Positions 10,287 to 28,016 are shown, counted from the stretch's first letter. The stretch is DNA of 64,000 nt from Candidatus Woesebacteria bacterium UBA1430 (GCA_002329465.1 DCTW01000005.1:4131-68130), one strand, 5' to 3'. Numbers and translations: made by a program. Notes: generated by a model from the sequence alone, not told the origin.

Positions 10287-10511
10287 ATGACAAAAGATAC
10301 ATCAAAAACTAAAAACATTGACATAAATAATCTCCCTGATTTATTAACAGTTAGGGAAGTAGCCCAGCTTCTAAGAGTCTCTCCCTTGACTATAAAAAGA
10401 TGGGGTAAAAGAGGAAAGCTACCACCCATACGAATAAACTCCCGAGGCGACCGCCGCTACAAAAAAGAAGCGGTTCTCTACCTTCTCGGCATGCAGTCCC
10501 CGAACGAATAA
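10287..10511 (+). CDS. Small helix-turn-helix DNA-binding protein of the excisionase/AlpA-like family.
   Basis: The sequence 'LLTVREVAQLLRVSPLTIKRWGKRGKLPPIRINSRGDRRYKKEAV' matches the excisionase-family HTH pattern. Confidence 0.6.
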   Translation: MTKDTSKTKNIDINNLPDLLTVREVAQLLRVSPLTIKRWGKRGKLPPIRINSRGDRRYKKEAVLYLLGMQSPNE

Positions 10512-10588
10512 CTTACTTTTCATACTATATATACACGAAATACGTTTTTTGCTAAACTCATCTTAGATATAAAAAAATAAATCTGCCC

Positions 10589-13500
10589 ATGCTAAAGACT
10601 AAGTTCAAACTCGGTCAAAAAATTGTATTTAAAATAGCTAAAAAAATTTTCTTGCTTTTTTTAATATTTTTATTTGCTTTCCCCTTTAATATTATTGTGC
10701 CGAAAACAAATAGCGTTTTTGCCTCGACATCCCATGTAATTACTACGCGCGAAGATTGGGATAGCGGCGAATTCAATTTCGTTGAATCCGAGACTGAAAA
10801 CGGATCTATAAAACTCAGAGCAGATGGTGAATGGGAGCCAAGAAGCTTTGAAACACCAAATCTTACGTTGTCATACGGCGCGTCTTTTGTCTCTGACGGT
10901 ACTTATATTTATGTGTTAAGAGGATACGGGGACGATGCTTTTTGGAAATATAATCCGAATGATGATAAATGGGAAGACCTTGCAAGCCCTGATCTTGGGG
11001 CTTATCACGGAGCAGATCTTGTAATTATAGGCAACTACATATATGCAATTTTCGGCGGCAATCAGCCTAACTTCGCCAGGTACGACAAGGAATCCGACGC
11101 ATGGACCAATCTTGAATCACTTCCTGCTTTGGTAAATACGGGGGGATCACTGGCAACGGACGGTACGGATATCTATGCTATGAGAGGCGGATCAACCACA
11201 GTATATTTTTATGATGTAAGCGAAGACGATTGGTTGGAAAAACCCGAATTTCCCTCATCCGTATCTTATGGAGACTTGGTTTATCACAATGGCTATCTAT
11301 ATAATGTTGATAACAGCAATCCAAACAGATTTTTCAAATATTCTGTGGCGGACGGTTCTTATGAACAGCTTGAAAGCCCGCCCCAAAGAATAACAAACGA
11401 AACAGACGCGACCATTCACGATGGCTACATCTATTACATGCGCTCCTCAAATACTACGGATTTTTATAGATACAACCTGTCCGGTGGAACCTGGGAAACA
11501 TTAACATCAACGCCCCAAAATAGCCGAGGAGGCGTAGTCTATCACTCCGCTGATAACTATATTTACGTTTTTCGAGGCAATTCAAGCTACGATTTTTGGA
11601 AATACGATATTTCTAACGATTCATTCCTTGGCCCTACCGACTCTCCGGTAACACTCTATAGGGGAAGCGATATGCTCTACTACAATTCGAATTTTTATAT
11701 TCTAAGAGGATACAATACCCCGACATTTTATGAGTATGATATTTCGGAAGCAACTTGGACCCAAAAAGCTGACGCACCGGGTAACATTTATTACTACACT
11801 CGGGGAACAGCCGCCGGGCAGTATCTTTATTTTTTCCAAGGAAACAGCACAAGCTTTTATAGCTATGATCCTCTGGAAAATTTATGGACGACGCTAACGC
11901 CGGCTCCACTTTCAACTAGCGAAGGAGCACTTGCTTATCCGGGGAGCGGGGACTATATCTACGCAATCCGTGGAGGTGGAACATCAACATTCTGGCGCTA
12001 TAGCATTTCACAAAACGAGTGGCAAGATAACGAAGCAGAGGATCTGCCCTCGGGAATAGCAGCGGGAAGCGGATCGGCTTTAATCAGCGTTGAAGGAGAT
12101 CTGTTTTTGCTTTTAGGTTCAGGAACGCCTGGATTTTATAAGTACGATGTATCTGAAAATTCCTGGTCGGCATTGCTTGAGGCTCCTTTTGCGCCTTCAA
12201 ACAGCTCGGACATTGCTTACGATAACTCAAATAAAATACTGGCGATTGCATCCAACTACGATGACGATCTTTATGAATACAATATTTCCTCAAATACATG
12301 GAGGCGTCTTGCCAACATGTCTGAATACTATGGATACAAACTTGGCACTGCCAATGGAAGCTCAATTGAATACGACGGCTTAGGAAGCTTCTATATAGTA
12401 AGGGGACAGACAACAATTAATCTTCTTAAATATAACCCAAGCAATTACAATTATCCGGTTTCCGGTACTTGGATAAGCGATGCCTTAGATTTATCCTATG
12501 TATCAAGCTGGGTTTCGCTTTCGGCAAGCACAACCACACCTTCCGATTCCTCTATAAACCTTGAAACAAGAACCAGCAGCGATTTATCTAACTGGTCATC
12601 ATGGGAAAGCGTATCAGAAGGCACTATCTTCTCGCCGGCCAACCGCTATATCCAAATAAAAGCAACGCTCTACGCATCAACAGATAGAACTGAAACTCCA
12701 AAACTTAATGACATAACTGTTGCTTATACCGGAGACGAGGTAGATCCACTAAATCCAAGTAGCGTAACGGCTTTGTCGCAGCAGGTAGGAGGAAGCAGCT
12801 TAACAAGCGGGGAGACATATTCTCACGCTCATCCTTACTTCTATTGGTCTGGTTCGGATGAGCATACTTCGGTAGCAGGATATTATGTTTATTTCGGCGC
12901 TTCAAGTGACGCAAATCCTAAAACACAAGGGAATTGGCAAACATCAGGTATTTTTACCGTTACAACACCACTATCCCAAGGAAGCTATTACTTAAGGATA
13001 ATTACCAAAGATCAAGTAGGAAACGAGTCGGATCCGGTAACACTTTTTACATACGTTTACAGCGGTGTGGGGGCGGATCAGTCATTTACGGCGGACGAAA
13101 CATCCGAGTTTCTTGGTACAACATCAAATGTAGATGTTTCAAACGACCAGATTACCCTTGCTTCGGTAGACGGCTTTTGGCTCGAAGAAAGATTTAGCCT
13201 TGCTCCGGCGGGCCTTCAATATGCAGCGCACACTCCGGCTTACGTCAGCTCTACAAATAAACTTTATATCCTTCGTGGAGCAAACGACAATGTTTTTTTA
13301 GAGTACGATCTAACAACAGATACATGGACCACGCTTTCTCCGGCTCCCGATGCGGCAAGAATGGGTGGAGGAGTAATCGAAGGTCCGGCGGGATATCTAT
13401 TTGCGCTTCAGGGAAACAATACCAACAAGTTCTGGCGCTACAGCATAGCTACAGATGAATGGAGCGATGAAGAAGCATCCGATGCTCCAAGCAACGTTTA

Positions 13501-16500
13501 CTACGGAGGAAGCATGGTTTACGACCAATCCCGCTATATTTATGCAACCCGTGGGGACAATACCGATTCGTTCTGGCGCTACGACACTATTGATAACACA
13601 TGGAGCAGCTCGGCAGTAGCTTCTCTAAATTTCGGGGCACCCACAAACGTAGGCACAAACAATGCATATACCGGAGCAGACCTTGTATTTGATGGAGATG
13701 ATACAATCTATGCAATACAGGGCAATTATCAGGCCGGTTTTTCCGCTTACAGTATAAGCAGTAACGAGTGGACACCCCTTTTAAATCTGCCGATTCTTCC
13801 CAGTTCCGGTGCTTCAATCGAAATCTCAAGCGACAATTCTTCAATCTACTACGCCCCCGGAGATAACCAAACGGATTTATTTAAATACAGTATTGCAAGC
13901 AATACCTGGTCCCAAATGTCCGATGCTCCGGCAAGTATAAGTTATGGCGGATCAATAAGAAGAATTGGCGAAAAGCTTTACGTAATAAGAGGAGGAAACC
14001 AGACACAAATTTATACATACAACACGGAAACCGATATGTGGAAAGTTCCTGTGCGAGGTTTATTTGGCCCCGTTTTTCAAGGGACTTCCCTTGATTCCCT
14101 TAATTACAGCAGCGCTATAGCCAAAGGCGTTGGGTCAAATTTTTACATGATACGCGGCAATTACGCAAACGACTTTATAAGCTACAATTCTCAAACAGGC
14201 GAGGTAACAAGGTTAAAAGACTTGCCCTCCGGTTCTTATTTGGGTGCCAGTTTAGTTTACGACAGTGTAAACGCCAAAATATATTATCATCCGGGTGTAT
14301 ATTGGAACCATTTTTATGTATATGACACCTCAAGCGACACATGGAGCGAAGAAACAAGCGACCCCCCGCCAGCCGCTCCCAACGCAGGATCAAGCATGGT
14401 ATATGACGGATCAAGATATATCTATCTATCTCGAGGTGGATGGACAAATTCGTTTTATCGCTTTGATACAGAAAACCAATCGGCAGGAACTAAGTGGGAA
14501 ACTTTAAACAACACCCCCGCTTCTTTAAGCTATGGATCAGAACTGGTTTATAAAGATAGCTATATCTATACTCTGCGGGGTGCAAATGAAGCCAATAATC
14601 CCTTTTATCGGTACGATACGGTGGAAGGCACCTGGGACGATGCGGCGGTGGCGGATCTTGATATAGATGTTTATTACGAAGGCTTTTTGGTGGATGGCCA
14701 CGATGGCTATCTTTATGCGGCAAGAGGCGATAACGCAAATGAATTCTATCGTTACTCAATAAGTGAAAACAGTTGGGAAAGTTTGGCCAGTGTACCCGGT
14801 CAGGTTTACAGAGGAGGCGCGGCTATATCAGACGAAGCAGGCAAAATCTTGGTTTTCGCAGGAGCGGGGACAAATACATTTAACGACGCTCTTTATACCT
14901 ATGTCCAAAACACAAGCTCTTCAGGTTTTCAAGAGAGTGGTACATACACCTCACAAGCACACGACCTTACAAGCGTTTACAAATGGGGTAATATTACCCT
15001 TACTTATCAATCTGCTTCGGATACAACGCTTCAAGTAGAAACGCGCACTTCAAGCGACGGATCGGACTGGTCCGGATGGCAGGAATCAACTAAATTAAAA
15101 ACAATCGCCACAAGCTATGAATATTTGATCAATTCGCCGGCGAATCGCTATATTCAGGTGCGTTTTAGCCTAGATTCTACAAACGGAATTTATTCAGGTG
15201 TTATTTCAGACTATACAATCAATTATTATCAGGATTTAACAGCACCTTCTAACCCCGCTGCGATAACGACATATAGCAGTAGTAATAAAACTATCGAGTT
15301 GACAGAATCCGATGCTTGGTATTCATACACCTCTCCTTATTTTGATTGGCCGGATGAGGAAACAGCGGGAGGTGCTACAGACAGCTCAACCGGCTCCGGA
15401 GTAGTGGGTTATTATGTTTATTTTGGTACAAATGAAAGCGCAGACCCAGCAGTCTCAGGTGAATTAACCTCAGATACATATTATCAGGCACAAAATTTGG
15501 TAACAGGCCAGACATACTATCTGAGAATAAAAACGGCTGACGATGCAGGCAACACACAGGAAGAAATTTGGCAGCCTTTTATCTATAAATTTGACAGCAC
15601 CAACCCCTCAATACCAACAGGTCTGGAAGCGGACCCTTCCGGATATTCGGCTGTTGACAGCTTTAGCTTTGGCTGGAATGCCTCAAGCGATCCCGAGTCG
15701 TTAATAACATCTTACTGCTACAAAACAGGTGCCGAAAGTGGTGCCTGGTCCTCCGATCAATGCGCCGACGCATTGACGGTGTCAAGCGTACCGTCGTATA
15801 AGACGGGAGCAAATGTTTTTTATGTAAGAAGCAAAGATTCGGCCGGAAATTATTCGGATTATGCAACTGTTACTTATTATTTTAATACAGGCGCTCCTTC
15901 TGCGCCTCAGAACCTAAGCGTAACACCCTCTGTTAATACGCTAAATTCGTTTTCGTTCTCATGGTCTGCCCCCGCAGTCTATCTCGGCAGCGAATCAAAC
16001 ATCAAGTATTACTACAGCATCAACGCCCTCCCCACAGCTCAAAGCGTAACCGAAACGCTAACGTCAATGCTTTCGGCAGGTGCGTATGCAACTCTGCCTG
16101 GAGAGAATACATTCTATGTAGTAGCAAAAGACGAAGCAGGAAACATGGATTACAATAATTATGCTTCAATCACATTTACCGCAAATACCACAGCACCGGG
16201 TATCCCGACAAGCGTTGATATAGCGGATGTTTCCGTAAAAGCGACAAGCAGTTGGAAACTTGCAGTTTCTTGGGAAGAGCCTAGCCTTACCGGAGCGGGT
16301 ATAGCAACATATAAAATTTATAGATCAATAGACGGCATTGCCTACACTTACAGAGCATCCACAAGCGGAATTTCCTATGTTGACACAGGATTAACACAGC
16401 AAACCTATTACTACAAAATCAATGCATGCGATAGCGCCAATAATTGTGGTGAATTTTCAAGCACGGTATCAATGTATCCGGACGGCAAATTTACAGAAGC

Positions 16501-17725
16501 GGCGCCTTTGATAAGCGATCCTTCTGTAAGTAATATAACGACCCGTAAGGCTGTTGTTTCTTGGACGACTTCAAGAACAAGCGATTCCAAGGTGGCTTAC
16601 GGCACCTCATCCGGAAGCTATTTTACAGAAGAAGTAAGTAACTCGGATCACGTAACAAGCCACACAATTACACTGACAAATCTTGAGCCTGGAACTACAT
16701 ATTATTACATAGCAAAATGGACCGATGAGGACGGGAACACAGGCACAAGCTCGGAAAATACTTTTGAGACAAGCCCCGCTCCCTCGGTAAAAGACGTATC
16801 CGTTTCTGAAATAGGTATAGAATCGGCGCTGATAACATTTACCGTAACAGGAGCTTCCAAAATAAAAATATACTATGGCGAATCTACATCCTTCGGAGGT
16901 ATAAAAGAAATAAGTACCTCCGCCTCTGAATCAACATATACGGCGCAATTGACAGGTCTGCTTGACGGAACAAAATATTACTATAAAATTAACGCCTTTG
17001 ATAGCGAAGAATATGAATACGCAGGTACAACACTTGATTTTGAAACACTTCCGAGGCCGCAAATAAGCGAAGTCACCGTCCAACAAGTCAAAGGAACCGC
17101 TCAACCAACCCTACTTGTCACCTGGGAAACAAACACCGAAGTGTCAAGCATTGTTTCTTACTATCCTTTGGAAAATCCTCTTCAGGCAAGAGACGAAATA
17201 AACGCAGATCTTACAAAAGGGGAGCACAAAATGATCGTCCGCGGCCTGATGCCCGAAACGGTTTATGCGCTTGTTATAAAAGGAAGAGATAAAGTAGGAA
17301 ACGAAGCCGTCTCTGATGTAATTAACTTAACAACTTCTTCCGATACACGCCCTCCACAGATAACAAATCTAAAAGTTGAAGGTAGCCTTATGCCGAATAT
17401 ATCGGATCAGGGCGAATCGGTAACCCAGCTGGTAGTTTCCTGGGATACGGACGAGCCCTCATCGGCACAAGTTGAATTCGGAGAGGGCACGGCAGATACT
17501 TACGCTCAAAAAACCCAAGAAGACTCAAATCTTACATATAATCATCTTGTAGTTATATCCGGACTTTCTCCAAGCAAAGTTTATCATCTTAGAGCGGTTT
17601 CAAAAGACAAAGCCGGAAACGAGGGTAAATCAGTTGATACCGTAACTATCACCCCCAAGGCCACAAAAAGCGCTCTTGATCTTGTAATTACAAATCTTTC
17701 CGAAGCATTCGGGTTTCTTAAATAA
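10589..17725 (+). CDS. Giant (2378 aa) secreted or surface protein made of Kelch-type beta-propeller repeat arrays and fibronectin-III-like domains.
   Basis: It has a signal peptide or N-terminal anchor. There are at least 25 repeats of about 47 aa with the pattern 'IYxxRGxxxxxFxxYxxxxxxWxxLxxxP'. Domains containing 'SPANRYIQ' and 'YYVYFG' are duplicated. The C-terminal Fn3-like modules include 'GTTYYYIAKWTDEDGNTG' and 'KVYHLRAVSKDKAGNEG'. Confidence 0.8.
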   Translation: MLKTKFKLGQKIVFKIAKKIFLLFLIFLFAFPFNIIVPKTNSVFASTSHVITTREDWDSGEFNFVESETENGSIKLRADGEWEPRSFETPNLTLSYGASFVSDGTYIYVLRGYGDDAFWKYNPNDDKWEDLASPDLGAYHGADLVIIGNYIYAIFGGNQPNFARYDKESDAWTNLESLPALVNTGGSLATDGTDIYAMRGGSTTVYFYDVSEDDWLEKPEFPSSVSYGDLVYHNGYLYNVDNSNPNRFFKYSVADGSYEQLESPPQRITNETDATIHDGYIYYMRSSNTTDFYRYNLSGGTWETLTSTPQNSRGGVVYHSADNYIYVFRGNSSYDFWKYDISNDSFLGPTDSPVTLYRGSDMLYYNSNFYILRGYNTPTFYEYDISEATWTQKADAPGNIYYYTRGTAAGQYLYFFQGNSTSFYSYDPLENLWTTLTPAPLSTSEGALAYPGSGDYIYAIRGGGTSTFWRYSISQNEWQDNEAEDLPSGIAAGSGSALISVEGDLFLLLGSGTPGFYKYDVSENSWSALLEAPFAPSNSSDIAYDNSNKILAIASNYDDDLYEYNISSNTWRRLANMSEYYGYKLGTANGSSIEYDGLGSFYIVRGQTTINLLKYNPSNYNYPVSGTWISDALDLSYVSSWVSLSASTTTPSDSSINLETRTSSDLSNWSSWESVSEGTIFSPANRYIQIKATLYASTDRTETPKLNDITVAYTGDEVDPLNPSSVTALSQQVGGSSLTSGETYSHAHPYFYWSGSDEHTSVAGYYVYFGASSDANPKTQGNWQTSGIFTVTTPLSQGSYYLRIITKDQVGNESDPVTLFTYVYSGVGADQSFTADETSEFLGTTSNVDVSNDQITLASVDGFWLEERFSLAPAGLQYAAHTPAYVSSTNKLYILRGANDNVFLEYDLTTDTWTTLSPAPDAARMGGGVIEGPAGYLFALQGNNTNKFWRYSIATDEWSDEEASDAPSNVYYGGSMVYDQSRYIYATRGDNTDSFWRYDTIDNTWSSSAVASLNFGAPTNVGTNNAYTGADLVFDGDDTIYAIQGNYQAGFSAYSISSNEWTPLLNLPILPSSGASIEISSDNSSIYYAPGDNQTDLFKYSIASNTWSQMSDAPASISYGGSIRRIGEKLYVIRGGNQTQIYTYNTETDMWKVPVRGLFGPVFQGTSLDSLNYSSAIAKGVGSNFYMIRGNYANDFISYNSQTGEVTRLKDLPSGSYLGASLVYDSVNAKIYYHPGVYWNHFYVYDTSSDTWSEETSDPPPAAPNAGSSMVYDGSRYIYLSRGGWTNSFYRFDTENQSAGTKWETLNNTPASLSYGSELVYKDSYIYTLRGANEANNPFYRYDTVEGTWDDAAVADLDIDVYYEGFLVDGHDGYLYAARGDNANEFYRYSISENSWESLASVPGQVYRGGAAISDEAGKILVFAGAGTNTFNDALYTYVQNTSSSGFQESGTYTSQAHDLTSVYKWGNITLTYQSASDTTLQVETRTSSDGSDWSGWQESTKLKTIATSYEYLINSPANRYIQVRFSLDSTNGIYSGVISDYTINYYQDLTAPSNPAAITTYSSSNKTIELTESDAWYSYTSPYFDWPDEETAGGATDSSTGSGVVGYYVYFGTNESADPAVSGELTSDTYYQAQNLVTGQTYYLRIKTADDAGNTQEEIWQPFIYKFDSTNPSIPTGLEADPSGYSAVDSFSFGWNASSDPESLITSYCYKTGAESGAWSSDQCADALTVSSVPSYKTGANVFYVRSKDSAGNYSDYATVTYYFNTGAPSAPQNLSVTPSVNTLNSFSFSWSAPAVYLGSESNIKYYYSINALPTAQSVTETLTSMLSAGAYATLPGENTFYVVAKDEAGNMDYNNYASITFTANTTAPGIPTSVDIADVSVKATSSWKLAVSWEEPSLTGAGIATYKIYRSIDGIAYTYRASTSGISYVDTGLTQQTYYYKINACDSANNCGEFSSTVSMYPDGKFTEAAPLISDPSVSNITTRKAVVSWTTSRTSDSKVAYGTSSGSYFTEEVSNSDHVTSHTITLTNLEPGTTYYYIAKWTDEDGNTGTSSENTFETSPAPSVKDVSVSEIGIESALITFTVTGASKIKIYYGESTSFGGIKEISTSASESTYTAQLTGLLDGTKYYYKINAFDSEEYEYAGTTLDFETLPRPQISEVTVQQVKGTAQPTLLVTWETNTEVSSIVSYYPLENPLQARDEINADLTKGEHKMIVRGLMPETVYALVIKGRDKVGNEAVSDVINLTTSSDTRPPQITNLKVEGSLMPNISDQGESVTQLVVSWDTDEPSSAQVEFGEGTADTYAQKTQEDSNLTYNHLVVISGLSPSKVYHLRAVSKDKAGNEGKSVDTVTITPKATKSALDLVITNLSEAFGFLK

Positions 17726-17745
17726 ATTTGATAAACTAAAATAAG

Positions 17746-18258
17746 ATGCAGGACGATTTAATCAGATTTTTTTCAACAACAGAAATATCGGTTTTCAAGG
17801 GATTGTTTTTTATTACAACAGCCTTTTTTTTAATCTCAATATTTATAGTAATTCTTCTTTCGGCGCTTTCTACAACCACTTTTATTAAAAAAAGAGATAA
17901 AAAAAATAGAAATAAGCTGATAATGGTACTAATTATCCTTCTGGCACTTCCGGTCGGCGTTTCAACAATGGCTCTACAAAAAAGTCTTGGAAAAAGTTCC
18001 AAGGCATATTCTATTGGTATTGTTTTTAAAGAATCTGTACCCCTTGATGATTCAAGCTATCTTGTTAATATAGAAACAAAATCTCCACACATTCTCTATC
18101 TTAAAGCAAAGCTTCCTACTGGCGATTTTGAAACAATAATGCCCACTTATTCGCTTGAGAAAAGGAAACTCCACTCGTTTATTATCCCGCGGGAACATCT
18201 CGACGATCTTTATATAGTGGCAGAGGATTTGGAAATGCCTTTTGATATTTCCGATTAA
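17746..18258 (+). CDS. Hypothetical membrane protein.
   Basis: A 170-aa protein with two transmembrane segments, lying directly upstream of the ABC transporter genes. Confidence 0.4.
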   Translation: MQDDLIRFFSTTEISVFKGLFFITTAFFLISIFIVILLSALSTTTFIKKRDKKNRNKLIMVLIILLALPVGVSTMALQKSLGKSSKAYSIGIVFKESVPLDDSSYLVNIETKSPHILYLKAKLPTGDFETIMPTYSLEKRKLHSFIIPREHLDDLYIVAEDLEMPFDISD

Positions 18259-18263
18259 CCAAA

Positions 18264-19043
18264 ATGGAATATACAAAGATCGTCCAAATAAATAATCTAA
18301 CTAAATCTTTTAGAGTAGGCAGTCAAGATATCAACGTACTCAAAAATATTTCATTTTCGATTTCGAATGGAGATTTTGTAATAATAGTTGGCCCTTCCGG
18401 GTGTGGTAAATCAACACTTCTTCATACAATCCTAGGTCTTGAGCCTCCGACAAGCGGGGATGTAATTTTCCTTGGCAGAAACGTCTATCGTGAATTGGCA
18501 ACCGAGGACGAGCGGTCTGATTTTCGGAAAAAACATATAGGCATGGTTTACCAGCAATCAAATTGGGTAAAAGCGCTTACTTCTATAGAGAATGTTTTTT
18601 TTCCGCTGATGCTTATGGGCTACGACGAGGAGCTCTGCAGACAAAAAGCCGAGGACATGCTCAAAAAAGTAAACATGCTTGAGTGGAAGGATTTCATTCC
18701 CACAGAACTCTCCGGTGGACAGCAGCAAAAAGTCGCTCTCGCAAGAGCACTGATTAATAATCCCGATGTAATTATCGGAGACGAGCCTACGGGAAATCTG
18801 GATTATGCGTCCGGCGAAGAGATTATGAATCTTTTTATAGAGCTTAACAGCAAAGAAAAAAAGACCGTAATAATGGTTACTCACAACCTTGATTATTTAA
18901 ACTACGCAAAAACGACAATAAGGTTGTTTGATGGACAGCTTGTCGGTATATATAAAGAAAAAGATAGGAAGCAACTTGCAAAAGATATAGAAAAATTTAA
19001 GCTTGGAAACAAATCTCAAAACAAAAATGAAAAAAGCATTTGA
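18264..19043 (+). CDS. ABC transporter ATP-binding protein (MacB/LolD/FtsE-like).
   Basis: Walker A 'GPSGCGKST', the ABC signature 'LSGGQQQK' and Walker B 'IIGDEPTGNLD' are all present. Confidence 0.9.
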   Translation: MEYTKIVQINNLTKSFRVGSQDINVLKNISFSISNGDFVIIVGPSGCGKSTLLHTILGLEPPTSGDVIFLGRNVYRELATEDERSDFRKKHIGMVYQQSNWVKALTSIENVFFPLMLMGYDEELCRQKAEDMLKKVNMLEWKDFIPTELSGGQQQKVALARALINNPDVIIGDEPTGNLDYASGEEIMNLFIELNSKEKKTVIMVTHNLDYLNYAKTTIRLFDGQLVGIYKEKDRKQLAKDIEKFKLGNKSQNKNEKSI

Positions 19044-20997
19044 CAAGGTAAAAAATTTCCCAAAAATTAGTTTTGGAAAAATTGTTCTTTCATCTTTAAA
19101 AGAATTTGTATCAATATTTTTTTTTAACATCGTTTTGATCGTTTATCTTTTGGAAATTTTTTTCGTATGGATATCTAAAAGAAAATTTTTTCCCAAAATA
19201 ATTTCGAGAAAAATTAGTCCACCGGTTCGCAAAGTTACTAATAAAATATACTCTCTATCTAAAAGATCCGAAGGCAGTATAAATACAATTAGTTTGATCA
19301 ATCTTGCCTTAAGAAGCATGAGAACCAAAAGATCCAGGACTTTTGTTACAATCGGTGGAATGTCCGTAGGTATCGGTGCGATAGTTTTTCTTGTATCGAT
19401 AGGTTATGGCCTTCAAAGGGTAGTGGTTAGCCGCGTTGCGAGACTCGAAGAGCTTAAACAGTATGAGGTAAGCACCCAAATCGGTTCGCAGGTTAAAATT
19501 ACAGATTCGTCAATGGCTGATATCTCAAACATAGACGGTGTAGTAGAAACTCTGCCGCTTATTGCAGTAGTAGGAAGGGTAAACTACCAAAACTCTGTTA
19601 CGGACCTTGCAGTATATGGAGTAACTTCAAAATTTCTAGTTCACTCTGCTATAAAACCCATTAAAGGCGACACCTTCCGGACAGAAGAAGTTGTCGTTAC
19701 TAAAAATATTCAAGAAGAAGTTTCAGGTGTTTCAGACACGAGGATTGATCAAAATATTGGAGATGAAATCGGAAAAGTGCATTTTTTAATACCCGAGGGT
19801 GAGCAGATAAAAGTAAGAAGCGAACCGTCAAAATCATCGTCACTAGTTGGCTATGCCAAAGGCACGGGTAATGCTCTTTTGGGCACTGAAGTATGGGGAA
19901 GTTATTATGATTCTGCTAACCCCGAAGACCAAGCAGAAAACACAAACGGGCAAAAAATGAGCAAATGGATAAAAGCAAGCCTGCAGGTCTGGGAAAAAGA
20001 AGGAAACGGCTTTACTGTAAAGGGGTTTATTTCAAAAGAGCAAATTAGGGTGTCAGGTGTTTTAGGCACTACAGATGAAATCGATGTTTCGGAGTTGGCA
20101 GAACTTATCGAATCAACAGGCTCGGCAGAAATCGAACTTCTCGAACTTGCTTCCGAATCGGCAGGGCTAAAGAATAATGAAATAAAAAAAGTTGATCTTG
20201 CTGAAAATACGCTTAAAGAAGCGGTTGTCAACAGATCCTTCTTAACTCTTTTAGGTATTGAAGAATCTCAAGCAGTAGGAAAAACTTTTGATATATCTTT
20301 TGTGATAGTCGGAGACCTTTTGTCAAATACGGAGGAAAAAATAGAGTCCATACCGGCTTCTTACAAAATAATCGGAGTTATCCCGGATGAAGATTCTGCC
20401 TATATCTACGTTCCTTTTTCAGATCTTAAAAGCCTTGGTATTAAAAATTATACACAACTTAAATTAGTAGTCGAAGACGATAAAAAACTTGAGCATGCCC
20501 GTAGGCAAGTAGAAGCTATGGGTTTTACAACATCCTCTGTAATAGATACGGTAAATCAAATAGATCAGCTGTTTGCCACCCTAAGATTTGCCCTTGCTTC
20601 GGTTGGAATGATAGCGCTGGCAGTTGCCGCCCTTGGTATGTTCAATACAATGACGGTATCTCTACTTGAAAGAACAAGGGAAGTAGGATTAATGAAAGCA
20701 ATGGGAATGAGATCCGGCGAGGTAAAAGATCTTTTTTTGACCGAGTCAATGACAATGGGCTTTCTGGGAGGTCTTTTTGGATTGGGCATAGGCTTTATTG
20801 CTGGAAAATTAGTAAGCGTACTTATATCCATATTGGCATTAAGTAAAGGCTTAGGCTTTATAGATATAAGCTATATTCCACCTATGTTTATACTAGTAAT
20901 AATTATTATGTCCACTCTCGTCGGTCTTTTTACAGGTATTTATCCTGCCCGCCGTGCCAAAAACATCTCTGCACTCAACGCATTGCGCTACGAATAA
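19027..20997 (+). CDS. ABC transporter permease (MacB/FtsX-like) with a large extracytoplasmic domain.
   Basis: The N-terminal transmembrane segment is 'FVTIGGMSVGIGAIVFLVSIGYG'. The C-terminal FtsX-type four-helix bundle is 'LKAMGMRSGEVKDLF…'. The track start at 19003 overlaps the ATPase gene, so I used the ATG at 19027. Confidence 0.75.
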   Translation: MKKAFDKVKNFPKISFGKIVLSSLKEFVSIFFFNIVLIVYLLEIFFVWISKRKFFPKIISRKISPPVRKVTNKIYSLSKRSEGSINTISLINLALRSMRTKRSRTFVTIGGMSVGIGAIVFLVSIGYGLQRVVVSRVARLEELKQYEVSTQIGSQVKITDSSMADISNIDGVVETLPLIAVVGRVNYQNSVTDLAVYGVTSKFLVHSAIKPIKGDTFRTEEVVVTKNIQEEVSGVSDTRIDQNIGDEIGKVHFLIPEGEQIKVRSEPSKSSSLVGYAKGTGNALLGTEVWGSYYDSANPEDQAENTNGQKMSKWIKASLQVWEKEGNGFTVKGFISKEQIRVSGVLGTTDEIDVSELAELIESTGSAEIELLELASESAGLKNNEIKKVDLAENTLKEAVVNRSFLTLLGIEESQAVGKTFDISFVIVGDLLSNTEEKIESIPASYKIIGVIPDEDSAYIYVPFSDLKSLGIKNYTQLKLVVEDDKKLEHARRQVEAMGFTTSSVIDTVNQIDQLFATLRFALASVGMIALAVAALGMFNTMTVSLLERTREVGLMKAMGMRSGEVKDLFLTESMTMGFLGGLFGLGIGFIAGKLVSVLISILALSKGLGFIDISYIPPMFILVIIIMSTLVGLFTGIYPARRAKNISALNALRYE

Positions 20998-21039
20998 TAT
21001 TGCTCCTTAAAGCAAGTAGAATGATATAATACGAATTAT

Positions 21040-21939
21040 ATGAAAAAGATTTTACCCTTACTATTAATAGTATATTTTTTTGTCTTTTCCGAGAAATCTG
21101 TTTGTGCTCAAATAAAGACGGAAGTCCCAAGCCCTACCGCGACTTTCGAGTCTGAACCAACAGCCTCGCCGGATCCGACTCCGGAGCCAACCCCAAGGGT
21201 TGACATTACCCAAAAAAGCGAAGAATCAATAGGCCCTCTCGAAAAGCTTTTAAACGATCAGGTGTTAGGGCCTGTTTTTCCCGCAAACCCACTTAAATAT
21301 GCAATTCGTGCTTCAGTCAAAGCGGGAGTGCCGCCTAACACTATAGTACTTCTAATTCTCTTGCCGTTAATAGCCGCAGTTATAGCAGCGGCACGCCACA
21401 TAATAGGCTTAAGAGGATTTGGTATTTTTCTGCCGGCTGCTTTATCAATAGTATTTGTTGCGATAGGCCCTGTAGTCGGGCTTTTGTTGTTTTTAGTTAT
21501 AGTATCCGCCTCGACATTTTTTAGAATGCTTTTAAGAAAAATAAAAATCAAGCTTCAATATTTACCAAGGATGTCTTTGATTCTCTGGTTTGTTGTCTGC
21601 GGAGTTCTTTTGGTGTTGTTTCTCGCACCGCTTATCAAAATACCCGGGCTTACCAATGTTTCGATTTTCCCGGTTTTGCTTTTGGTTCTTCTTGCGGAAG
21701 ATTTTACCAAACTCCAGCTTGGAAAAAGCGCACGTACAGCGGTAAGCTTTATAACGGAAACAATTATTTTGTCTTTGATATCATATATGTTTCTTACCAT
21801 GCAGTCGCTTCAGCGTTATGCTTTGCTCAATCCGGAGATTACGCTTCTATCGGTTGCGGTTTTTGATCTCATATTAGGAAAATATACAGGCCTTCGCGTA
21901 TTGGAATACTGGAGATTCAGAAAACTAATTAAAGGCTAA
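21040..21939 (+). CDS. Signal peptide plus a seven-helix polytopic membrane protein.
   Basis: A cleavable-looking signal ('…FVFSEKSVCAQ') is followed by a Pro/Thr-rich linker and then seven hydrophobic helices. The gene sits directly upstream of the ATP-grasp genes. Confidence 0.55.
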   Translation: MKKILPLLLIVYFFVFSEKSVCAQIKTEVPSPTATFESEPTASPDPTPEPTPRVDITQKSEESIGPLEKLLNDQVLGPVFPANPLKYAIRASVKAGVPPNTIVLLILLPLIAAVIAAARHIIGLRGFGIFLPAALSIVFVAIGPVVGLLLFLVIVSASTFFRMLLRKIKIKLQYLPRMSLILWFVVCGVLLVLFLAPLIKIPGLTNVSIFPVLLLVLLAEDFTKLQLGKSARTAVSFITETIILSLISYMFLTMQSLQRYALLNPEITLLSVAVFDLILGKYTGLRVLEYWRFRKLIKG

Positions 21940-21943
21940 ATCT

Positions 21944-23269
21944 ATGAAAGCTCAAAACATCTTGGGTCTTAACGCAAGAACTCAACTTTTTTCATATCAA
22001 TACAATAAACCAAAGTCAAAACGCATTGCCTCATCAAAACTGTTAACTGAAAAGGTGCTTAAAAAGGCCGGTATTCCAACTCCGCTAATATATAAAAAAT
22101 TTATAAAGCCGAAAGATATTCTTAATTTTGACTGGAACGGCCTGCCTGAAGCTTTCGTAGTTAAACCAAGCAGGGGACTGGGAGGAAATGGGATCATAGT
22201 CATTAAAAAAAGATCTAAAGACAAAACAGGTTGGATCACAACAAGTAGGAAAAAATTACTCGAAGAAGATTTAAAACTCCATGTTTTAGATATTTTAGAA
22301 GGCGCTTTTAGCATGCACAACTCACCGGACGCAGCCTTTATTCAGGAATACGTACCTCGCCATAAAGCTTTTAGAAAGTACGCATATCGCGGCACGCCTG
22401 ATATAAGAATTATTGTTTTTAACAAAGTGCCGGTAATGGCGATGATGCGTCTTCCCACAAAAGATTCCGGCGGCCGAGCAAATCTCCATCAGGGCGCAAT
22501 AGGTGTGGGAGTTGATATAGCAACAGGTATAACAACAAAGTCTATTTGGTATGGCAATCAGATCCGCTATAAACCGGGCACAAAAAGAAAGCTTCATGGT
22601 ATTAAAATCCCTCACTGGACGGATATATTAAAAATTGCGGTCTTGAGCCAAGAAGCATCAGGGCTTGGACTTTTAGGGGTTGATATTGTTCTTCATCCTA
22701 CCAAAGGGCCAATGGTTCTCGAGTTAAACTATCAGCCGGGTACGCAGATACAGCTTGCAAACATGGCAGGTCTTAGAAAAAGGCTTGAGAGAGTTGAAGA
22801 TCTTAAAGTAAGAGATGCAGAGCATGGTGTTAAAATTGCAAAAGCACTTTTTATGTCTGACTTCTCAGATAGAGTAAAAGCAGATGAAGGGGTAAAAACA
22901 ATTTCGTCATTAGAAGAGATAAAAATAAAAGGCGCTCAAAAAGGGCTCAGAAAAAAGGTTTACGCAAAAGTCGATACGGGTGCCTGGAGAACGTCAATTA
23001 GTAAAAAATTAGCCGAAGAATTAGGACTTCTTAATCAGAATAACATCCTTTGGACTAAAGAATTCAAAAGTTCTCTTGGTAAAGAAGAAAGGCCCGTTAT
23101 AAGCCTTACATTTTGGCTTGCGGGTAGAAAAATCACAACTCCAGCTTCAGTCGCGAAAAGAATGACACTTAAATATCCAATAATAATAGGAAGAAAAAAT
23201 CTTAAAGGTTTCTTGGTAGATCCGCACATTCCCATAGATAAAGTAAAGGAGGCAAGAGAAAAAAAATGA
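21944..23269 (+). CDS. RimK-like ATP-grasp ligase fused to a C-terminal retropepsin-like (clan AA) aspartic protease domain.
   Basis: The ATP-grasp core carries 'VVKPSRGLGGNGIIVI' and 'ELNYQPG'. The C-terminal domain carries the active-site motif 'AKVDTGAWRTS' (D-T-G-A) and 'PIIIGRKNL'. Confidence 0.7.
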   Translation: MKAQNILGLNARTQLFSYQYNKPKSKRIASSKLLTEKVLKKAGIPTPLIYKKFIKPKDILNFDWNGLPEAFVVKPSRGLGGNGIIVIKKRSKDKTGWITTSRKKLLEEDLKLHVLDILEGAFSMHNSPDAAFIQEYVPRHKAFRKYAYRGTPDIRIIVFNKVPVMAMMRLPTKDSGGRANLHQGAIGVGVDIATGITTKSIWYGNQIRYKPGTKRKLHGIKIPHWTDILKIAVLSQEASGLGLLGVDIVLHPTKGPMVLELNYQPGTQIQLANMAGLRKRLERVEDLKVRDAEHGVKIAKALFMSDFSDRVKADEGVKTISSLEEIKIKGAQKGLRKKVYAKVDTGAWRTSISKKLAEELGLLNQNNILWTKEFKSSLGKEERPVISLTFWLAGRKITTPASVAKRMTLKYPIIIGRKNLKGFLVDPHIPIDKVKEAREKK

Positions 23270-24138
23270 AAGTAGCTTTAGTTACCACACTTCCTTCACT
23301 TATTGAAAATAGCCGCATTAAAGAAGAAATAAAAGCCCTAAACTACAGCTTCACACTAATAGATTTAAGCAATTTTTCCTTCAGCGTAGTTGGAGGAAAT
23401 TTAAGCGTAAAAGGCCTTACGGATCAAGAATTCGATATAATAATTTCAAGAGGAATATTTAGCTCAATAAAACCAATTATAGCCGTTCTTCAGGGATTAA
23501 GAAAAAAGGGAATTAAAATATTTGACAACAATTTTCTTCACGATCAATACCTTATAAACAAAACTTCCGATTTGGCAAAGCTGGCTTTAAATAATATCCC
23601 GGTTCCAAACACCGCTCAATCAAGAAATTTTTCCGACTACAAAAATTTATCAAGTAATTTAGGCTTCCCGTTGGTAATCAAATCTACACGCATGGGAAAA
23701 GGAGCAAATGTGTTCAAAATTTCTAATTTAAATGGTCTTTATAGATTTATCGAAGATGAAGAAAATCGAGGTCGTGAAGCTAAAAACTTTATTCTCCAAG
23801 AATTTATTCCTTATAAATACGACCTTCGTGTCTTAATTATCGGAGACAGGGTTTTTACGATGAGAAGAATACCGGCAAAAGGTGAGTTCAGAGCAAATTT
23901 TTCTTTAGGTGGGCATGTCGAAAAATTTGATTTGGATGAAGATGGCCTAAATTTGGCAAAATCTGCCCTTAAGGCAGTTGGTCTCGAAATTGGCGGAGTA
24001 GATTTGCTCATAACTAAAGACAACAAAAAATATGTTCTAGAAGTAAACCATACGGCTGGGTTTGTAGGCATGGAAAAAGCATATAATGAAAATATCGGAA
24101 AAGTATTTGTTGAATACGCCATAGCAAACGCAAGATGA
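23266..24138 (+). CDS. RimK/LysX-like ATP-grasp ligase.
   Basis: The motifs 'PLVIKSTRMGKGANV', 'QEFIPYKYDLRVLIIGDRV' and 'LEVNHTAGF' are present. The gene is translationally coupled to its neighbours. Confidence 0.75.
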   Translation: MKVALVTTLPSLIENSRIKEEIKALNYSFTLIDLSNFSFSVVGGNLSVKGLTDQEFDIIISRGIFSSIKPIIAVLQGLRKKGIKIFDNNFLHDQYLINKTSDLAKLALNNIPVPNTAQSRNFSDYKNLSSNLGFPLVIKSTRMGKGANVFKISNLNGLYRFIEDEENRGREAKNFILQEFIPYKYDLRVLIIGDRVFTMRRIPAKGEFRANFSLGGHVEKFDLDEDGLNLAKSALKAVGLEIGGVDLLITKDNKKYVLEVNHTAGFVGMEKAYNENIGKVFVEYAIANAR

Positions 24139-25037
24139 AAATTTTAATAGTTGGTTTAGTCAAAAATAGCCAGATCGTTCGCCTTCAAGAAGAAGGAGAA
24201 AAACGAGGCCACAAAGTAGAAGGCTGCTACACAAACGAGCTTGTAATAGAAACTGGGTCAGATTTTTTTAACCCGACGCTTAGAGGAAAATCCCTGAAGA
24301 ATTATGATCTAATTTACCTCTGGTCAGCAGGAAAACGCAGATGGGAATGGTACACAGCCTGTCTTTATCTTTGGGAAAAATTTGGAAGCATAATAATTAA
24401 CAAAAAGTGCATCTCCCCCGAGTACAATTTTTACTTAACTCCTGCAATTGATTACTATCTTCAGGTAAAAAATAAACTTCCATTTCCACGCTCCGCAATA
24501 ATATTTTCAACCAAATCAATTGACTCGGTTATCAAGGACTTTAACTTCCCGCTTATTCTTAAAACCTCAGGAGGAAGGCAGGGCAAGGGAGTATTCAAAA
24601 TAGAAGATAAAGATGCCCTAAAAAATAAAAGCGATGAGCTTTTCAAAGTTTCACCGAGCCTGGTTATAAGAGAGTTTATTCCAAACGACGGAGATATTAG
24701 AATTTTTACCGTCGGCTACAAGACAATTGCGGCAATGAAACGAATCCCCACACAAAAAGGCGAATTTAGAAGCAACATAAGTCAAGGAGGTAGGGGTGAA
24801 AATTTTAACCTCGATGATTATCCTAAAATTCGCGATATTGCCGAAAAAGCAAGTAAAATTATGGAAACAGAAATAGCGGGTGTGGACATTATAATTGATA
24901 AAAAGACACGCATGCCGTATATTTTGGAAATTAATCCCGGCCCGCAATTTACAGGGCTTGAAAAGTACACCAAGGTAAACGCCGCTAAAAAAATAATAGA
25001 ATATTTCGAAGAAGTTAAACATGCTATAATTCCATAA
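24135..25037 (+). CDS. RimK-like ATP-grasp ligase (third paralog).
   Basis: The motifs 'PLILKTSGGRQGKGVF', 'REFIPNDGDIRIFTVG' and 'LEINPGP' are present. Confidence 0.7.
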   Translation: MKILIVGLVKNSQIVRLQEEGEKRGHKVEGCYTNELVIETGSDFFNPTLRGKSLKNYDLIYLWSAGKRRWEWYTACLYLWEKFGSIIINKKCISPEYNFYLTPAIDYYLQVKNKLPFPRSAIIFSTKSIDSVIKDFNFPLILKTSGGRQGKGVFKIEDKDALKNKSDELFKVSPSLVIREFIPNDGDIRIFTVGYKTIAAMKRIPTQKGEFRSNISQGGRGENFNLDDYPKIRDIAEKASKIMETEIAGVDIIIDKKTRMPYILEINPGPQFTGLEKYTKVNAAKKIIEYFEEVKHAIIP

Positions 25038-25038
25038 A

Positions 25039-25518
25039 ATGTGCATAGAAGCAGGGGAAAACTGCCTGCTCAAAAGCTTTTGTGATTTTTTGGATTTTAA
25101 CCAACTATCAGAACTTCTTGTTGAGAGGATTATTCTGATACACGAAAACACAATACCTTCCTCGGATATATTTCCTCAGTGCCAAGGTGATTTATACCTT
25201 CGTCTTAAAGAGTTGATAAATGAAACTTTTAAAAACACTGATATTATAAAAAAATGTCACGATTTGATAAATGAAAGTGGGATAACCGGAAATGCTGATA
25301 GGGAACTTTTATGTATGGATATCTTTGGAAAAGACAATAATCTTAATAACCCCTCACAAATATATCTTGCCACCCTTTTTATTTCTTCACCCTTTCTTAA
25401 TCCTACCGAATTTGGGCAACATCTAATTGAAGGGCCAAAACAAATTTTGGGATACACCTATCAATTGTCCGCAAAAGACATTAAAACAGTATTTTCGGAA
25501 TTAAATGAATTACTTTAA
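25039..25518 (+). CDS. Hypothetical protein that starts one nucleotide after the stop of the third ATP-grasp gene.
   Basis: A 159-aa ORF with no recognised domain. Confidence 0.4.
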   Translation: MCIEAGENCLLKSFCDFLDFNQLSELLVERIILIHENTIPSSDIFPQCQGDLYLRLKELINETFKNTDIIKKCHDLINESGITGNADRELLCMDIFGKDNNLNNPSQIYLATLFISSPFLNPTEFGQHLIEGPKQILGYTYQLSAKDIKTVFSELNELL

Positions 25519-25539
25519 AAGCCTTTAGCTAAAAAAATT

Positions 25540-26666: not shown

Positions 26667-27242
26667 ATGACCCAGATTGAAATTTCGATAGGTAAGCGCG
26701 ATTCTGTCCCCGCAACTCTTACAGACATAATAAACAGAAGATATCCCTTACTAACATTGGGAAATAGCGCTTCGTTATTAGAGGATTACCGCAACTGGAA
26801 AATTGATGGCTGTTGCATAAGAGTAGAGGATGTCTATTCTCCTTTCGGAAGAAATTTCCTTGACTATGCAATTTCCAGATGCCGCAAAGCAAAGAAAGGA
26901 GAACCTGCTTACTGTGAACATGGAATCAGGGAACACAATAATTTTTTTGAGGTTCTTAAGATTCTCCAAGCCAGAATTCGTAGCGGAGAATTCTTACTTC
27001 AAAGCCAGGACACGGGGAACAAAAAAGGACTTCCAGAACAAAGATTTATACTAACACCCAACAATTATTTTTCCGATAGAAATATCCCTTATGTTGTTTT
27101 TGAAGGGCTTTCAACAATTGCAAATATTGAAATGCAACAACTTGTATTACCAACACCTTCCGATAAAAGACGCTTTTTTGGCTTAATAACAACTAAAATA
27201 ATAACAGCTAAGCGATCAAATAGAGCTATACTCTTCTCTTAG
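26667..27242 (+). CDS. Hypothetical protein inserted in the ribosomal L1-L10 interval.
   Basis: A 191-aa ORF with no recognised motif, convergent with the two hypotheticals downstream of rplA. Confidence 0.45.
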   Translation: MTQIEISIGKRDSVPATLTDIINRRYPLLTLGNSASLLEDYRNWKIDGCCIRVEDVYSPFGRNFLDYAISRCRKAKKGEPAYCEHGIREHNNFFEVLKILQARIRSGEFLLQSQDTGNKKGLPEQRFILTPNNYFSDRNIPYVVFEGLSTIANIEMQQLVLPTPSDKRRFFGLITTKIITAKRSNRAILFS

Positions 27243-27477
27243 GTTTTTCTGGCAAAGGGAAATCTGGAATATGATTTGAATAGTTCTGAAGCGCCAGCGC
27301 GAATCCGGAATTTTTATTTGCCTCCTCGACCAATTTATTTATGATGGGATCAAAAAAATCAGATAAGTAGCGAGCCTCATCCGAATCATCTATGGGAACT
27401 AAATAGCAAAAAATTGACCCACCATCATTATAATCAACCTGCCCGATGTGAGAATTTCTATTATCGTCAAATGTCAT
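27226..27477 (-). CDS. Hypothetical small protein (83 aa).
   Basis: Its start overlaps the stop of the 180-aa gene ('ATGA'). Confidence 0.4.
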   Translation of the reverse strand: MTFDDNRNSHIGQVDYNDGGSIFCYLVPIDDSDEARYLSDFFDPIINKLVEEANKNSGFALALQNYSNHIPDFPLPEKPKRRV

Positions 27478-28016
27478 TCTAAGAGTCCTTTTTTTAAGCC
27501 CTTTCCTAGAACTATCGACGCTTGATCTTCTTTTAGACGGATCGCCCCACAGGGCTTAGATAATTTGTGAGAATCAAAAAGCGAAGCCTTAAATCTCAAT
27601 AAGTCTCGCAACCGTCCCGTTTCCACTTTAGGTATTTTCTTTTTTTCAGGCCATGCGTCAAGATATTCAGAAACTGGTTCTTTATCCATAAAGCTTTCTC
27701 TATGACTTAGATCCGGGATGCCAATTTGTAATAAACAAAATCTATTGGGATGCATTATCAAATATCGATGGTCAACATTATATCGATCTCGCTCAAGATT
27801 AACCCTTATGGGTTTAAGAATTACAACTCCTCCATCATTAATTTGGGCAGCAATAGGAAGATCGGTCAAATTTTGAATATCGGAAATTCTTTGTATGATA
27901 CTGACACGTCTCTCATAAGCACTAATTGCTGCAAGTTCATTTTGAGCGACGGCTTCCTCAAGGTCACTCAGTATATCAGCAGAGGGGACAGGTATATTAT
28001 CATATCTCTCAATCAT
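27474..28016 (-). CDS. Hypothetical protein (180 aa) coupled to the 3' end of rplA.
   Basis: Its start codon lies 8 nt inside the end of rplA. No family recognised. Confidence 0.45.
   Translation of the reverse strand: MIERYDNIPVPSADILSDLEEAVAQNELAAISAYERRVSIIQRISDIQNLTDLPIAAQINDGGVVILKPIRVNLERDRYNVDHRYLIMHPNRFCLLQIGIPDLSHRESFMDKEPVSEYLDAWPEKKKIPKVETGRLRDLLRFKASLFDSHKLSKPCGAIRLKEDQASIVLGKGLKKGLLE

Follow-up and report, generated by a model that had tools for sequence, protein, structure and literature searches.

An RloB-type membrane protein, a ligase–retropepsin fusion and two RimK-family ligases encoded side by side in Woesebacteria: a probable Rlo/Rim-type unit

Introduction

What might a bacterium build, and take apart again, with ATP-grasp ligases, an aspartic peptidase and a seven-transmembrane (7TM) protein whose genes lie end to end? 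The question is raised by positions 21040–25518 of a 64 000-nucleotide stretch (here called the window) of Candidatus Woesebacteria bacterium UBA1430 (GCA_002329465.1, DCTW01000005.1:4131-68130). A first-pass annotation, made from the DNA alone, described a unit of five genes encoding a 7TM protein, an ATP-grasp ligase fused to a retropepsin-like domain, two further ATP-grasp ligases and a protein of no recognised family. It proposed a multi-ligase variant of the association of ATP-grasp, retropepsin and 7TM proteins, which could act stepwise. The original comparative-genomics prediction of this association is reportedly that of Iyer and co-workers in 2009, which we know through papers that cite it.

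The Rlo operon of Pseudomonas aeruginosa encodes RloA, a retropepsin that is secreted and cuts stretches of eight or more Glu residues, RloB, a 7TM protein with an inactive periplasmic transglutaminase domain, and RloC, a cytoplasmic ATP-grasp protein (Lormand et al., 2025; PMC12239564). The operon influences cell shape, the formation of biofilms, osmotic tolerance and susceptibility to antibiotics, and a triple RloA-protease mutant is relieved of its defects when RloB or RloC is lost (PMC12239564). In the Rim system, RimK glutamylates ribosomal protein S6 and makes poly-α-glutamate, while RimB, a cytoplasmic retropepsin, trims the chains and stimulates RimK (Little et al., 2025; PMC11957791). 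The first-pass description of the locus as biochemically uncharacterised needs narrowing in this light: Rlo genetics and the structures and biochemistry of RloA were published in 2025 (PMC12239564) and RimK and RimB have been studied (PMC11957791), whereas the product of RloB and RloC, like the natural substrate of RloA, is unknown.

We find that the woesebacterial locus is very probably a ligase–protease–7TM unit of the Rlo/Rim type. Our preferred reading of its function, with a probability of roughly 0.6, is a cytoplasmic cycle of ligation and trimming of acidic, probably α-glutamyl, peptide chains that is tethered to the 7TM membrane partner.

Results

Gene layout

Five open reading frames (ORFs), here called g1–g5, are called on the + strand at the coordinates of the first-pass annotation.

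21040–21939, + strand: g1, 299 residues, RloB-type 7TM membrane protein without transglutaminase domain
21944–23269, + strand: g2, 441 residues, RloC-type ATP-grasp (residues ~15–300) fused to a retropepsin-like aspartic peptidase (residues ~316–430)
21986–22798, + strand: ATP-grasp domain of g2 (residues 15–285, Pfam envelope)
22895–23233, + strand: retropepsin-like domain of g2 (residues ~318–430), aligning to the RloA crystal structures 9g58 and 9g59
22973–22984, + strand: catalytic D-T-G-A motif of g2 (residues 344–347), with R383 and R406 downstream of the motif
23266–24138, + strand: g3, 290 residues, RimK-family ATP-grasp ligase, paralog a
24135–25037, + strand: g4, 300 residues, RimK-family ATP-grasp ligase, paralog b
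25039–25518, + strand: g5, 159-residue orphan ORF between g4 and the convergent rplL gene

The g1 stop lies 4 nucleotides from the g2 ATG, g2/g3 and g3/g4 overlap in ATGA, and 1 nucleotide separates the g4 stop from the g5 ATG; from this spacing the genes would be translationally coupled. A convergent rplL–rplJ pair follows g5. Scans for promoters and terminators returned counts at or near the shuffle expectation and were of no aid in defining an operon. The window is patescibacterial, and in collinear blocks it shares 85–91% DNA identity with CP055307 (locus L006 below, from ‘Candidatus Woesebacteria bacterium isolate Ch104b’). An origin in a defence system or phage was ruled out: none of g1–g5 matches the PADLOC component models for anti-phage defence, and no PHROGs match was found.

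The ligase–retropepsin fusion

Families were assigned by Pfam and NCBIfam profile searches judged by the curated cut-offs, and these bear out the domain calls first made for g1–g4. The N-terminal half of g2 is an ATP-grasp ligase of family PF14397 (ATPgrasp_ST; E = 6e-65, 219.7 bits against a cut-off of 31.4, model positions 5–277 of 278). It carries the ATP-grasp motifs DIR (residues 153–155), R178-x-N180, GVDI (residues ~245–248) and E260-x-N262, and the ligase columns that are invariant in an alignment (A2) of 53 homologs include D153, R155, R178, N180, D247, E260 and N262. The locus had been credited with three RimK-like paralogs. Three ligases there are, and g3 and g4 are indeed RimK paralogs of one another (33.5% identity), but g2 is only 22–24% identical to them and belongs to a different ATP-grasp family, so that the set consists of one RloC-type and two RimK-type enzymes. 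In structural comparisons of its AlphaFold2 (AF2) model [predicted local distance difference test score (pLDDT): 84.8, predicted template modelling score (pTM): 0.80] the ligase half lies nearest to ArgX/LysX and RimK. All of these enzymes join amino acids to the carboxylates of peptides or proteins. The same model has a low-confidence linker at residues 307–315 and a β-rich C-terminal domain at the position of the retropepsin. The fusion has more than 4800 homologs; the best 120 are 65–77% identical, and those with names are from Woesebacteria or Patescibacteria.

Within the retropepsin half, all 53 homologs share D344, T345 and G346, while A347 has a conservation of at least 90%, and D-T-G is also kept in distant fusions from Patescibacteria. 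On alignment, the motif superposes on the DTGA of the RloA structures 9g58 and 9g59 (Lormand et al., 2025; PMC12239564). Via 9g58, for which a residue numbering offset of 20 was applied, RloA D48, R114 and R137 correspond to D344, R383 and R406 of g2, all three of them invariant. Mutation of R114 and R137 in RloA causes the strongest loss of poly-Glu cleavage and abolishes complementation (PMC12239564). By its conserved residues the protease domain of g2 looks active and Glu-directed. No signal peptide was found in g2, which places the retropepsin in the cytoplasm as part of the 441-residue ligase. Retropepsins need to form a homodimer to complete their active site, and g2 would therefore have to dimerise at least.

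The 7TM protein

The match of g1 to PF14402 (7TM_transglut; 7e-23, 81.8 bits against a cut-off of 25), a family described as seven transmembrane helices usually fused to an inactive transglutaminase, is confined to the 7TM part (residues 104–296). The NCBIfam RloB model NF052267 likewise aligns only through its C-terminal 7TM part (model positions 312–507 of 508, 58.9 bits against a cut-off of 900) and neither Pfam nor NCBIfam profiles detect a transglutaminase domain, as the first-pass annotation had noted. In its place g1 begins with a signal peptide (residues 1–23; A23-Q24 is nearly invariant in an alignment, A1, of 56 homologs), continues with a disordered Pro/Thr-rich linker (residues ~25–55) and reaches the membrane through a conserved ecto-segment (residues ~55–98). 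About 75 residues of the mature protein precede the first transmembrane helix, half of them in the linker. Seven transmembrane helices span residues 99–283 by hydropathy and in the AF2 model (pLDDT: 81), which ends in an amphipathic helix. This basic C-terminal helix (residues 284–298) is conserved, with G284, L285, R286, E289, R292 and R294 invariant in A1. From the cleaved signal peptide, the helix count and the positive-inside rule we infer an N-out/C-in topology, in which a conserved basic loop (residues ~162–178) and the C-terminal helix would face the cytoplasm. Of 1755 homologs of g1, the best 120 are all ~280–330 residues long and have PF14402 as their sole domain.

The RimK-family ligases

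g3 and g4 match RimK (PF08443) at 4e-27 and 3e-35; with TIGR00768 (cut-off 143.4) g3 falls just short at 141.2 bits and g4 passes at 158 bits. Both align over their full length to RimK structures with all catalytic motifs kept. The best solved relative of g3 is P. aeruginosa RimK (PDB-id: 7qyr; 3e-15, full length), and those of g4 are RimK entries 7qys, 5zct and 4iwx (~1e-23). In g3 the motifs K, QEF, DLR, R-x-N, GG, GVD and E-x-N are all present, and alignment with RimK-family ligases shows the ATP-grasp catalytic motifs retained in g2, g3 and g4 alike. Judged by these alignments, g3 and g4 are old RimK-family paralogs whose catalytic motifs are intact. None of the ligases is an ordinary glutathione synthetase (GshB), D-Ala-D-Ala ligase (Ddl) or carbamoyl-phosphate synthase (CPS), since the Pfam matches to those families (1e-5 to 1e-13) are secondary to the RimK (1e-27/1e-35) and ATPgrasp_ST matches, and their NCBIfam scores are far below the cut-offs. 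Nor are g3 and g4 RimK proper: the equivalog model for the S6 ligase (NF007764) gives 57.5 bits for g3 and 91.9 bits for g4 against a cut-off of 331. Orthologs of g3 (49–92% identity) adjoin g2 and g4 in 11 loci; for g4 there are 474 homologs (E ≤ 1e-10), and those of Woesebacteria and Blackburnbacteria bear the name ‘RimK family alpha-L-glutamate ligase’.

Relative to its ortholog in L006 (9192–10085), g4 has 73% protein identity, compared with 92–94% for g1–g3, and the divergence is spread over all but the first 50 residues. Either this last ligase evolves faster or it has been exchanged.

Gene neighbourhood and conservation

We compared 24 related loci (L001–L024), a modest sample partly chosen by similarity. 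g1 and g2 are adjacent in every locus that reaches far enough upstream, in Woesebacteria, Paceibacterota, Gracilibacteria and other Patescibacteria; g1 is not seen in L008 and L010, whose sequence ends at, or right beside, the point where the fusion gene begins. The 7TM protein and the fusion are found at 36–47% identity in Paceibacterota (L011), Gracilibacteria (L016) and other Patescibacteria (L013, L014 and L017). Among the loci gathered through the fusion, orthologs of g3 and g4 follow the core pair in only part of the Woesebacteria (L001 and L003–L006), and g1–g4 are adjacent in L001, L003, L004/L005 and L006. Where loci were instead chosen through g4, the four genes stand side by side in all seven (L018–L024); these neighbourhoods were sampled from contigs encoding g4 homologs, and a metagenome scan with g4 returned three loci. 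In one of the seven, L023, the g3–g4 and g2–g1 pairs are convergent and both the genomic context and the flanks differ, yet the four genes are still neighbours, which speaks for a functional link rather than for inheritance of gene order alone. DNA similarity to L006 spans 21022–25032, exactly around g1–g4, at 85% identity up to 25032, and resumes at 25537.

The arrangement of g1–g4 is far beyond chance, and the conserved unit is these four genes (21040–25037). Of the five-gene unit first proposed, the ORFs, coordinates, junctions and the linkage of g1–g4 stand, and g5, an orphan in a variable slot (see below), drops out. Together with the family matches, this linkage upholds the view of the locus as a variant of the ATP-grasp/retropepsin/7TM association. 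Conservation is layered: the core of 7TM protein and fusion extends across Patescibacteria, and g3 and g4 are a lineage-specific addition in part of the Woesebacteria. ‘Multi-ligase variant’ is thus apt for this locus, with its three ligases, and not for the core, which is the 7TM protein and the fusion alone. Beyond the core pair and accessory ligases that vary by lineage, no further gene is conserved in the neighbourhoods gathered through the fusion.

Could the genes simply be neighbours through inherited order in a small, streamlined genome, with no functional unit at all? Patescibacterial genomes are compact and rich in overlapping genes, and the block lies beside rplL–rplJ in most Woesebacteria. 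But the pairing of g1 and g2 spans several patescibacterial classes with unrelated flanks, the four genes of L023 are still side by side after an inversion and in new surroundings, and between close relatives both flanks have been replaced while the block was kept. The same three protein types, moreover, make up an experimentally linked operon in Pseudomonas. This explanation is largely refuted and we regard it as extremely improbable.

The ribosomal-protein genes nearby bear on a second alternative, in which the ligases would glutamylate a protein tail as RimK does that of S6, the fused retropepsin would remove the tails, the 7TM protein would be an envelope-stress sensor regulating the enzymes, and nothing would be exported. 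The nearest relatives of g3 and g4 are genuine RimK proteins, among them the RimK–RpsF complex entry 5zk6; the g2 retropepsin is cytoplasmic like RimB, not secreted like RloA; RimB takes Glu off RpsF (PMC11957791). The structural neighbours of the g2 ligase, ArgX/LysX and RimK, act on protein C-termini, and the block usually lies within a few kb of rplL–rplJ. That proximity is, however, lost in L023 and not seen within L021, where nusG and secE lie downstream, so it looks like inherited synteny. The low S6-ligase scores of g3 and g4, the occurrence of the core g1–g2 pair without any RimK in most Patescibacteria, and the obligate 7TM partner, which has no counterpart in Rim systems, also count against protein-tail modification, and we consider it unlikely.

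Four of the loci (L007, L008, L012 and L015) are labelled ‘uncultured Gammaproteobacteria/Pseudomonadales’ metagenome-assembled genomes, yet their fusion is patescibacterial (44–66% identity); rplL and rplJ of L007 are 43–60% identical to those of the window. They are probably mis-binned contigs and not evidence of the fusion in Proteobacteria. In L001 (CP065002) a gene of PF05635, the 23S rRNA intervening-sequence protein family, lies between the 7TM gene and the fusion gene (5553–5930), and an IS200-type Y1 transposase (9367–10053) occupies the variable slot after the last ligase.

Accessory ligases and a peptidase swap

The genes that accompany the core pair differ among lineages. L010 has no accessory ligase, and in sister lineages among the Woesebacteria (L007–L009) the fusion is followed by very divergent ligases matching the RimK Pfam family, two each in two of the loci:

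L007, 2315–4077: accessory ligases
L009, 2859–3917 and 5031–5915: accessory ligases

L008 has at least one before its contig ends. The accessory ligases of L007–L009 are 20–27% identical to g4, apart from one L009 gene, which is 38% identical to g3 over a partial stretch. In L013 (8447–10464) and L014 (8404–10411) the core pair, with a 7TM protein of just 215–224 residues, is followed by a 320-residue ATP-grasp protein of another type (ATPgrasp_ST/YheCD-like) and a family 4 glycosyltransferase (GT4), a context that may indicate a connection with the synthesis of glycans or of the envelope.

The peptidase can change as well. In a Candidatus Gracilibacteria contig (L016; JALVIB010000037, 5442–9316) the orthologous ligase is a 777-residue protein in which the ATP-grasp domain is followed by a retropepsin remnant (DLTA for DTGA, with an internal deletion) and an appended MATCAP domain (PF08014; 7e-50) with intact HExxH (HEIGTH). 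The 7TM partner in this locus has 506 residues, with an N-terminal PKD domain, and ends in ‘...DDSEE’, like an S6 acceptor tail. Enzymes of the MATCAP/TMCP type, which are metallocarboxypeptidases, shorten the acidic tails of tubulin and reverse polyglutamylation (PMC10499314). That two unrelated peptidase families have joined the same ligase argues that the ligase needs a partner shortening its product; that both families have characterised members removing glutamate argues that the product would be a glutamyl or acidic chain. Comparative anatomy of this kind points to such a chain as the likely product. Our literature searches found nothing on an association of bacterial MATCAP/DUF1704 with ATP-grasp proteins, and on RimK in Patescibacteria they gave no paper of apparent relevance.

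These variations bear on the stepwise assembly envisaged in the first-pass annotation, in which each ligase would add one residue to a small peptide, decorated metabolite or envelope component, the 7TM protein would display or export it, and the protease would mature or proofread it. The three ligases are distinct and intact (22–24% and 33.5% identity), so divergent specificities are possible, and the extra ATP-grasp protein and GT4 enzyme of L013 and L014, as well as the Pfam label of the g2 ligase family, would suit a glycan or envelope component; Shewanella with a disrupted RloB homolog has altered membrane vesicles (PMC12096838). Nevertheless, close lineages differ in their accessory ligases, which may be a pair of RimK orthologs, a pair of very divergent enzymes, a single enzyme from another family or absent altogether. 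This is not what a fixed multi-step pathway would lead one to expect, and the poly-Glu-binding arginines of the protease, with the swap to a family containing deglutamylases, point instead to a homopolymeric acidic chain. We think stepwise assembly quite improbable.

The g5 gene and flanking variable segments

g5 has no Pfam, NCBIfam, PADLOC or PHROGs match, matches only itself among 1.84e9 representative proteins and gives no tblastn match in the 24 related loci. The interval that holds it (25033–25536) is without counterpart in L006, where unrelated DNA with a 244-residue ORF is found; elsewhere the position is taken by genes such as those for a transposase or a methyltransferase. We conclude that g5, an orphan whose slot is variable, does not belong to the system, and its role as substrate or partner was ruled out. 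It may or may not be a real gene.

Directly upstream of g1, 10.5 kb of the window (10502–21021) are absent from L006, which has ~30 bp between the flanking conserved blocks. The segment looks like a strain-specific island, with these ORFs:

10589–17725: 2378-residue repeat-rich secreted or surface protein
18264–19043: ABC ATPase
19003–20997: MacB/FtsX-type permease
within 10502–21021: 170-residue membrane ORF

No homologs of the island genes were found in the 24 loci. The ABC ATPase and MacB-type permease were ruled out as the exporter of the system, having no homologs in related loci and lying inside an insertion that L006 lacks. Further downstream, a 191-residue ORF (26667–27242) is conserved in L006 and has no PHROGs match, and 27219–28003, between rplJ and rplA, has no counterpart in L006 and holds ORFs of 83 and 180 residues on the - strand.

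Discussion

Of the known systems, Rlo is the closest in composition: an RloC-type ATP-grasp ligase (PF14397/TIGR02291), an RloB-type 7TM protein (PF14402) and an RloA-type retropepsin are together in one operon, with DTG and both poly-Glu-coordinating arginines present in the retropepsin (RloA D48, R114 and R137). The two differ in four respects. The Rlo protease is a separate, secreted protein with a signal peptide, whereas the woesebacterial one is fused C-terminally to a cytoplasmic ligase; g1 has a signal peptide and a Pro/Thr linker in place of the inactive transglutaminase domain; two RimK-family ligases are added; and the host is patescibacterial and not known to have an outer membrane or periplasm, RloB being reported as 96% proteobacterial. 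With RimK/RimB(/RimA) the locus shares RimK-family ligases, a paired cytoplasmic retropepsin and the logic of a ligase with a Glu-trimming protease. Unlike that system, it has g3 and g4 that are not NCBIfam RimK equivalogs, a retropepsin carried by a non-RimK ligase, an obligate 7TM partner and no RimA. RimBK hybrids such as DP2392 of Desulfotalea psychrophila (PMC11957791) also combine retropepsin and ATP-grasp in one polypeptide, with an active protease domain. In those hybrids the retropepsin precedes RimK proper, whereas in g2 it follows an RloC-type ligase; the g2 fusion is independent of the RimBK fusion.

More distant parallels exist. In the tubulin code, ATP-grasp enzymes (TTL/TTLL) add Tyr or Glu to acidic tails and peptidases (MATCAP/TMCP) remove them (PMC10499314), as mirrored by the L016 ligase–MATCAP fusion, although substrates and organisms are unrelated and the peptidase of the window itself is a retropepsin. 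LysX and ArgX, which act on LysW, are RimK-family ligases working on a protein C-terminal Glu, and the fold of the g2 ligase is nearest to ArgX. The locus lacks a LysW-like carrier (there is no small carrier gene in or next to the block, whose gene gaps are ≤4 nucleotides), no lysine or arginine pathway genes lie nearby, and equivalog scores are 28–112 bits, those for TIGR02144 (LysX/ArgX) being 100–112 bits, against a cut-off of 275.6. An RloC-type ligase with a C-terminal retropepsin, an RloB without ectodomain and two RimK ligases form a combination that we have not found described. As it misses two defining features of Rlo as well as the RimBK architecture, we do not file the module in either named system.

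How would such a unit work? In the ligation–trimming cycle that we favour, the RloC-type ligase and the RimK paralogs would use ATP to build α-linked, glutamate-rich chains, either as free peptides resembling poly-α-glutamate or as tails on an acceptor. The fused retropepsin, dimeric with a two-Asp site, would cleave or trim these chains and set their length, giving a built-in cycle of synthesis and hydrolysis like that of RimK with RimB. The cycle would run at the cytoplasmic face of g1, whose basic loops and C-terminal helix would dock the ligase, and g1 would couple it to the envelope by export or sensing. g3 and g4 would be a lineage-specific addition that provides more, or more varied, ligase capacity; g5 and the upstream ABC transporter would be unrelated neighbours. 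Confidence differs among the elements of this scheme: that the chain is glutamyl we put a little short of even odds, and that the 7TM protein exports it seems doubtful.

Several observations weigh against a glutamyl chain made and trimmed at the membrane. g2 matches TIGR02291, labelled ‘alpha-L-glutamate ligase-like’ (RloC type), with 266.3 bits (3e-79, model positions 8–293 of 317), short of the hypothetical-equivalog cut-off of 314.2; being above the PF14397 cut-off and below this one, it is a family member from a divergent subfamily. Glutamate specificity of g2 would be an extrapolation, because RloC-type ligases have neither a known product or acceptor nor a known activity, and the Pfam name of PF14397 is ‘sugar-transfer associated’. 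The retropepsin half matches PF05618 marginally (3e-6, 27.6 bits against a cut-off of 27) and the NCBIfam RloA1–3 models at 21–27 bits against cut-offs of 210–280. With the protease secreted in Pseudomonas and cytoplasmic in Woesebacteria, the logic of the two systems may differ. In three of the four aligned accessory ligases from L007 and L009 the R-x-N...G-G substrate loop is degenerate and the Mg-binding motifs are kept. The role of accessory ligases is therefore possibly non-catalytic there; these proteins may be regulatory or of changed specificity. No solved structural relative was found for the 7TM model of g1, which leaves a transporter role without support. As to possible acceptors, in the window rpsF gave neither a tblastn match with E. 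coli S6 nor a candidate in the ORF list, and C-termini of the g1 family, mostly ‘...RKLISG’, end in D or E in 3 of 120 homologs. A g1 C-terminus serving as an S6-like acidic acceptor, an idea suggested by the ‘...DDSEE’ of L016, was ruled out for this family by that tally and because the terminus is basic.

A bolder version of the cycle is a membrane-coupled, ribosome-independent polypeptide synthase, in which an anionic α-glutamyl peptide would be polymerised by the RloC-type and RimK-type ligases on the cytoplasmic side of the 7TM protein and translocated by that protein to the cell surface and the retropepsin would set its length. We judge this unlikely. If true, it would mean an unrecognised surface or extracellular polymer of ultra-small, probably host-attached bacteria, and would also show what RloB and RloC of Pseudomonas make.

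The components and their logic will be no surprise to a specialist. What the patescibacterial form offers is a natural ‘minimal construct’ of the system. It suggests that the transglutaminase-like ectodomain is dispensable, that the protease can act in cis with the ligase in the cytoplasm, that the conserved core is the 7TM protein with the ligase–peptidase fusion, and that a member of the MATCAP family, to which deglutamylases belong, can take the place of the peptidase. Enzymes of the type of RimK, a known maker of poly-α-glutamate, join the operon in Woesebacteria. The module is abundant and conserved in a phylum of barely known physiology, as the number of fusion homologs attests, and a glutamyl chain that is made and trimmed by it would now be a concrete proposition, testable with three or four small soluble proteins.

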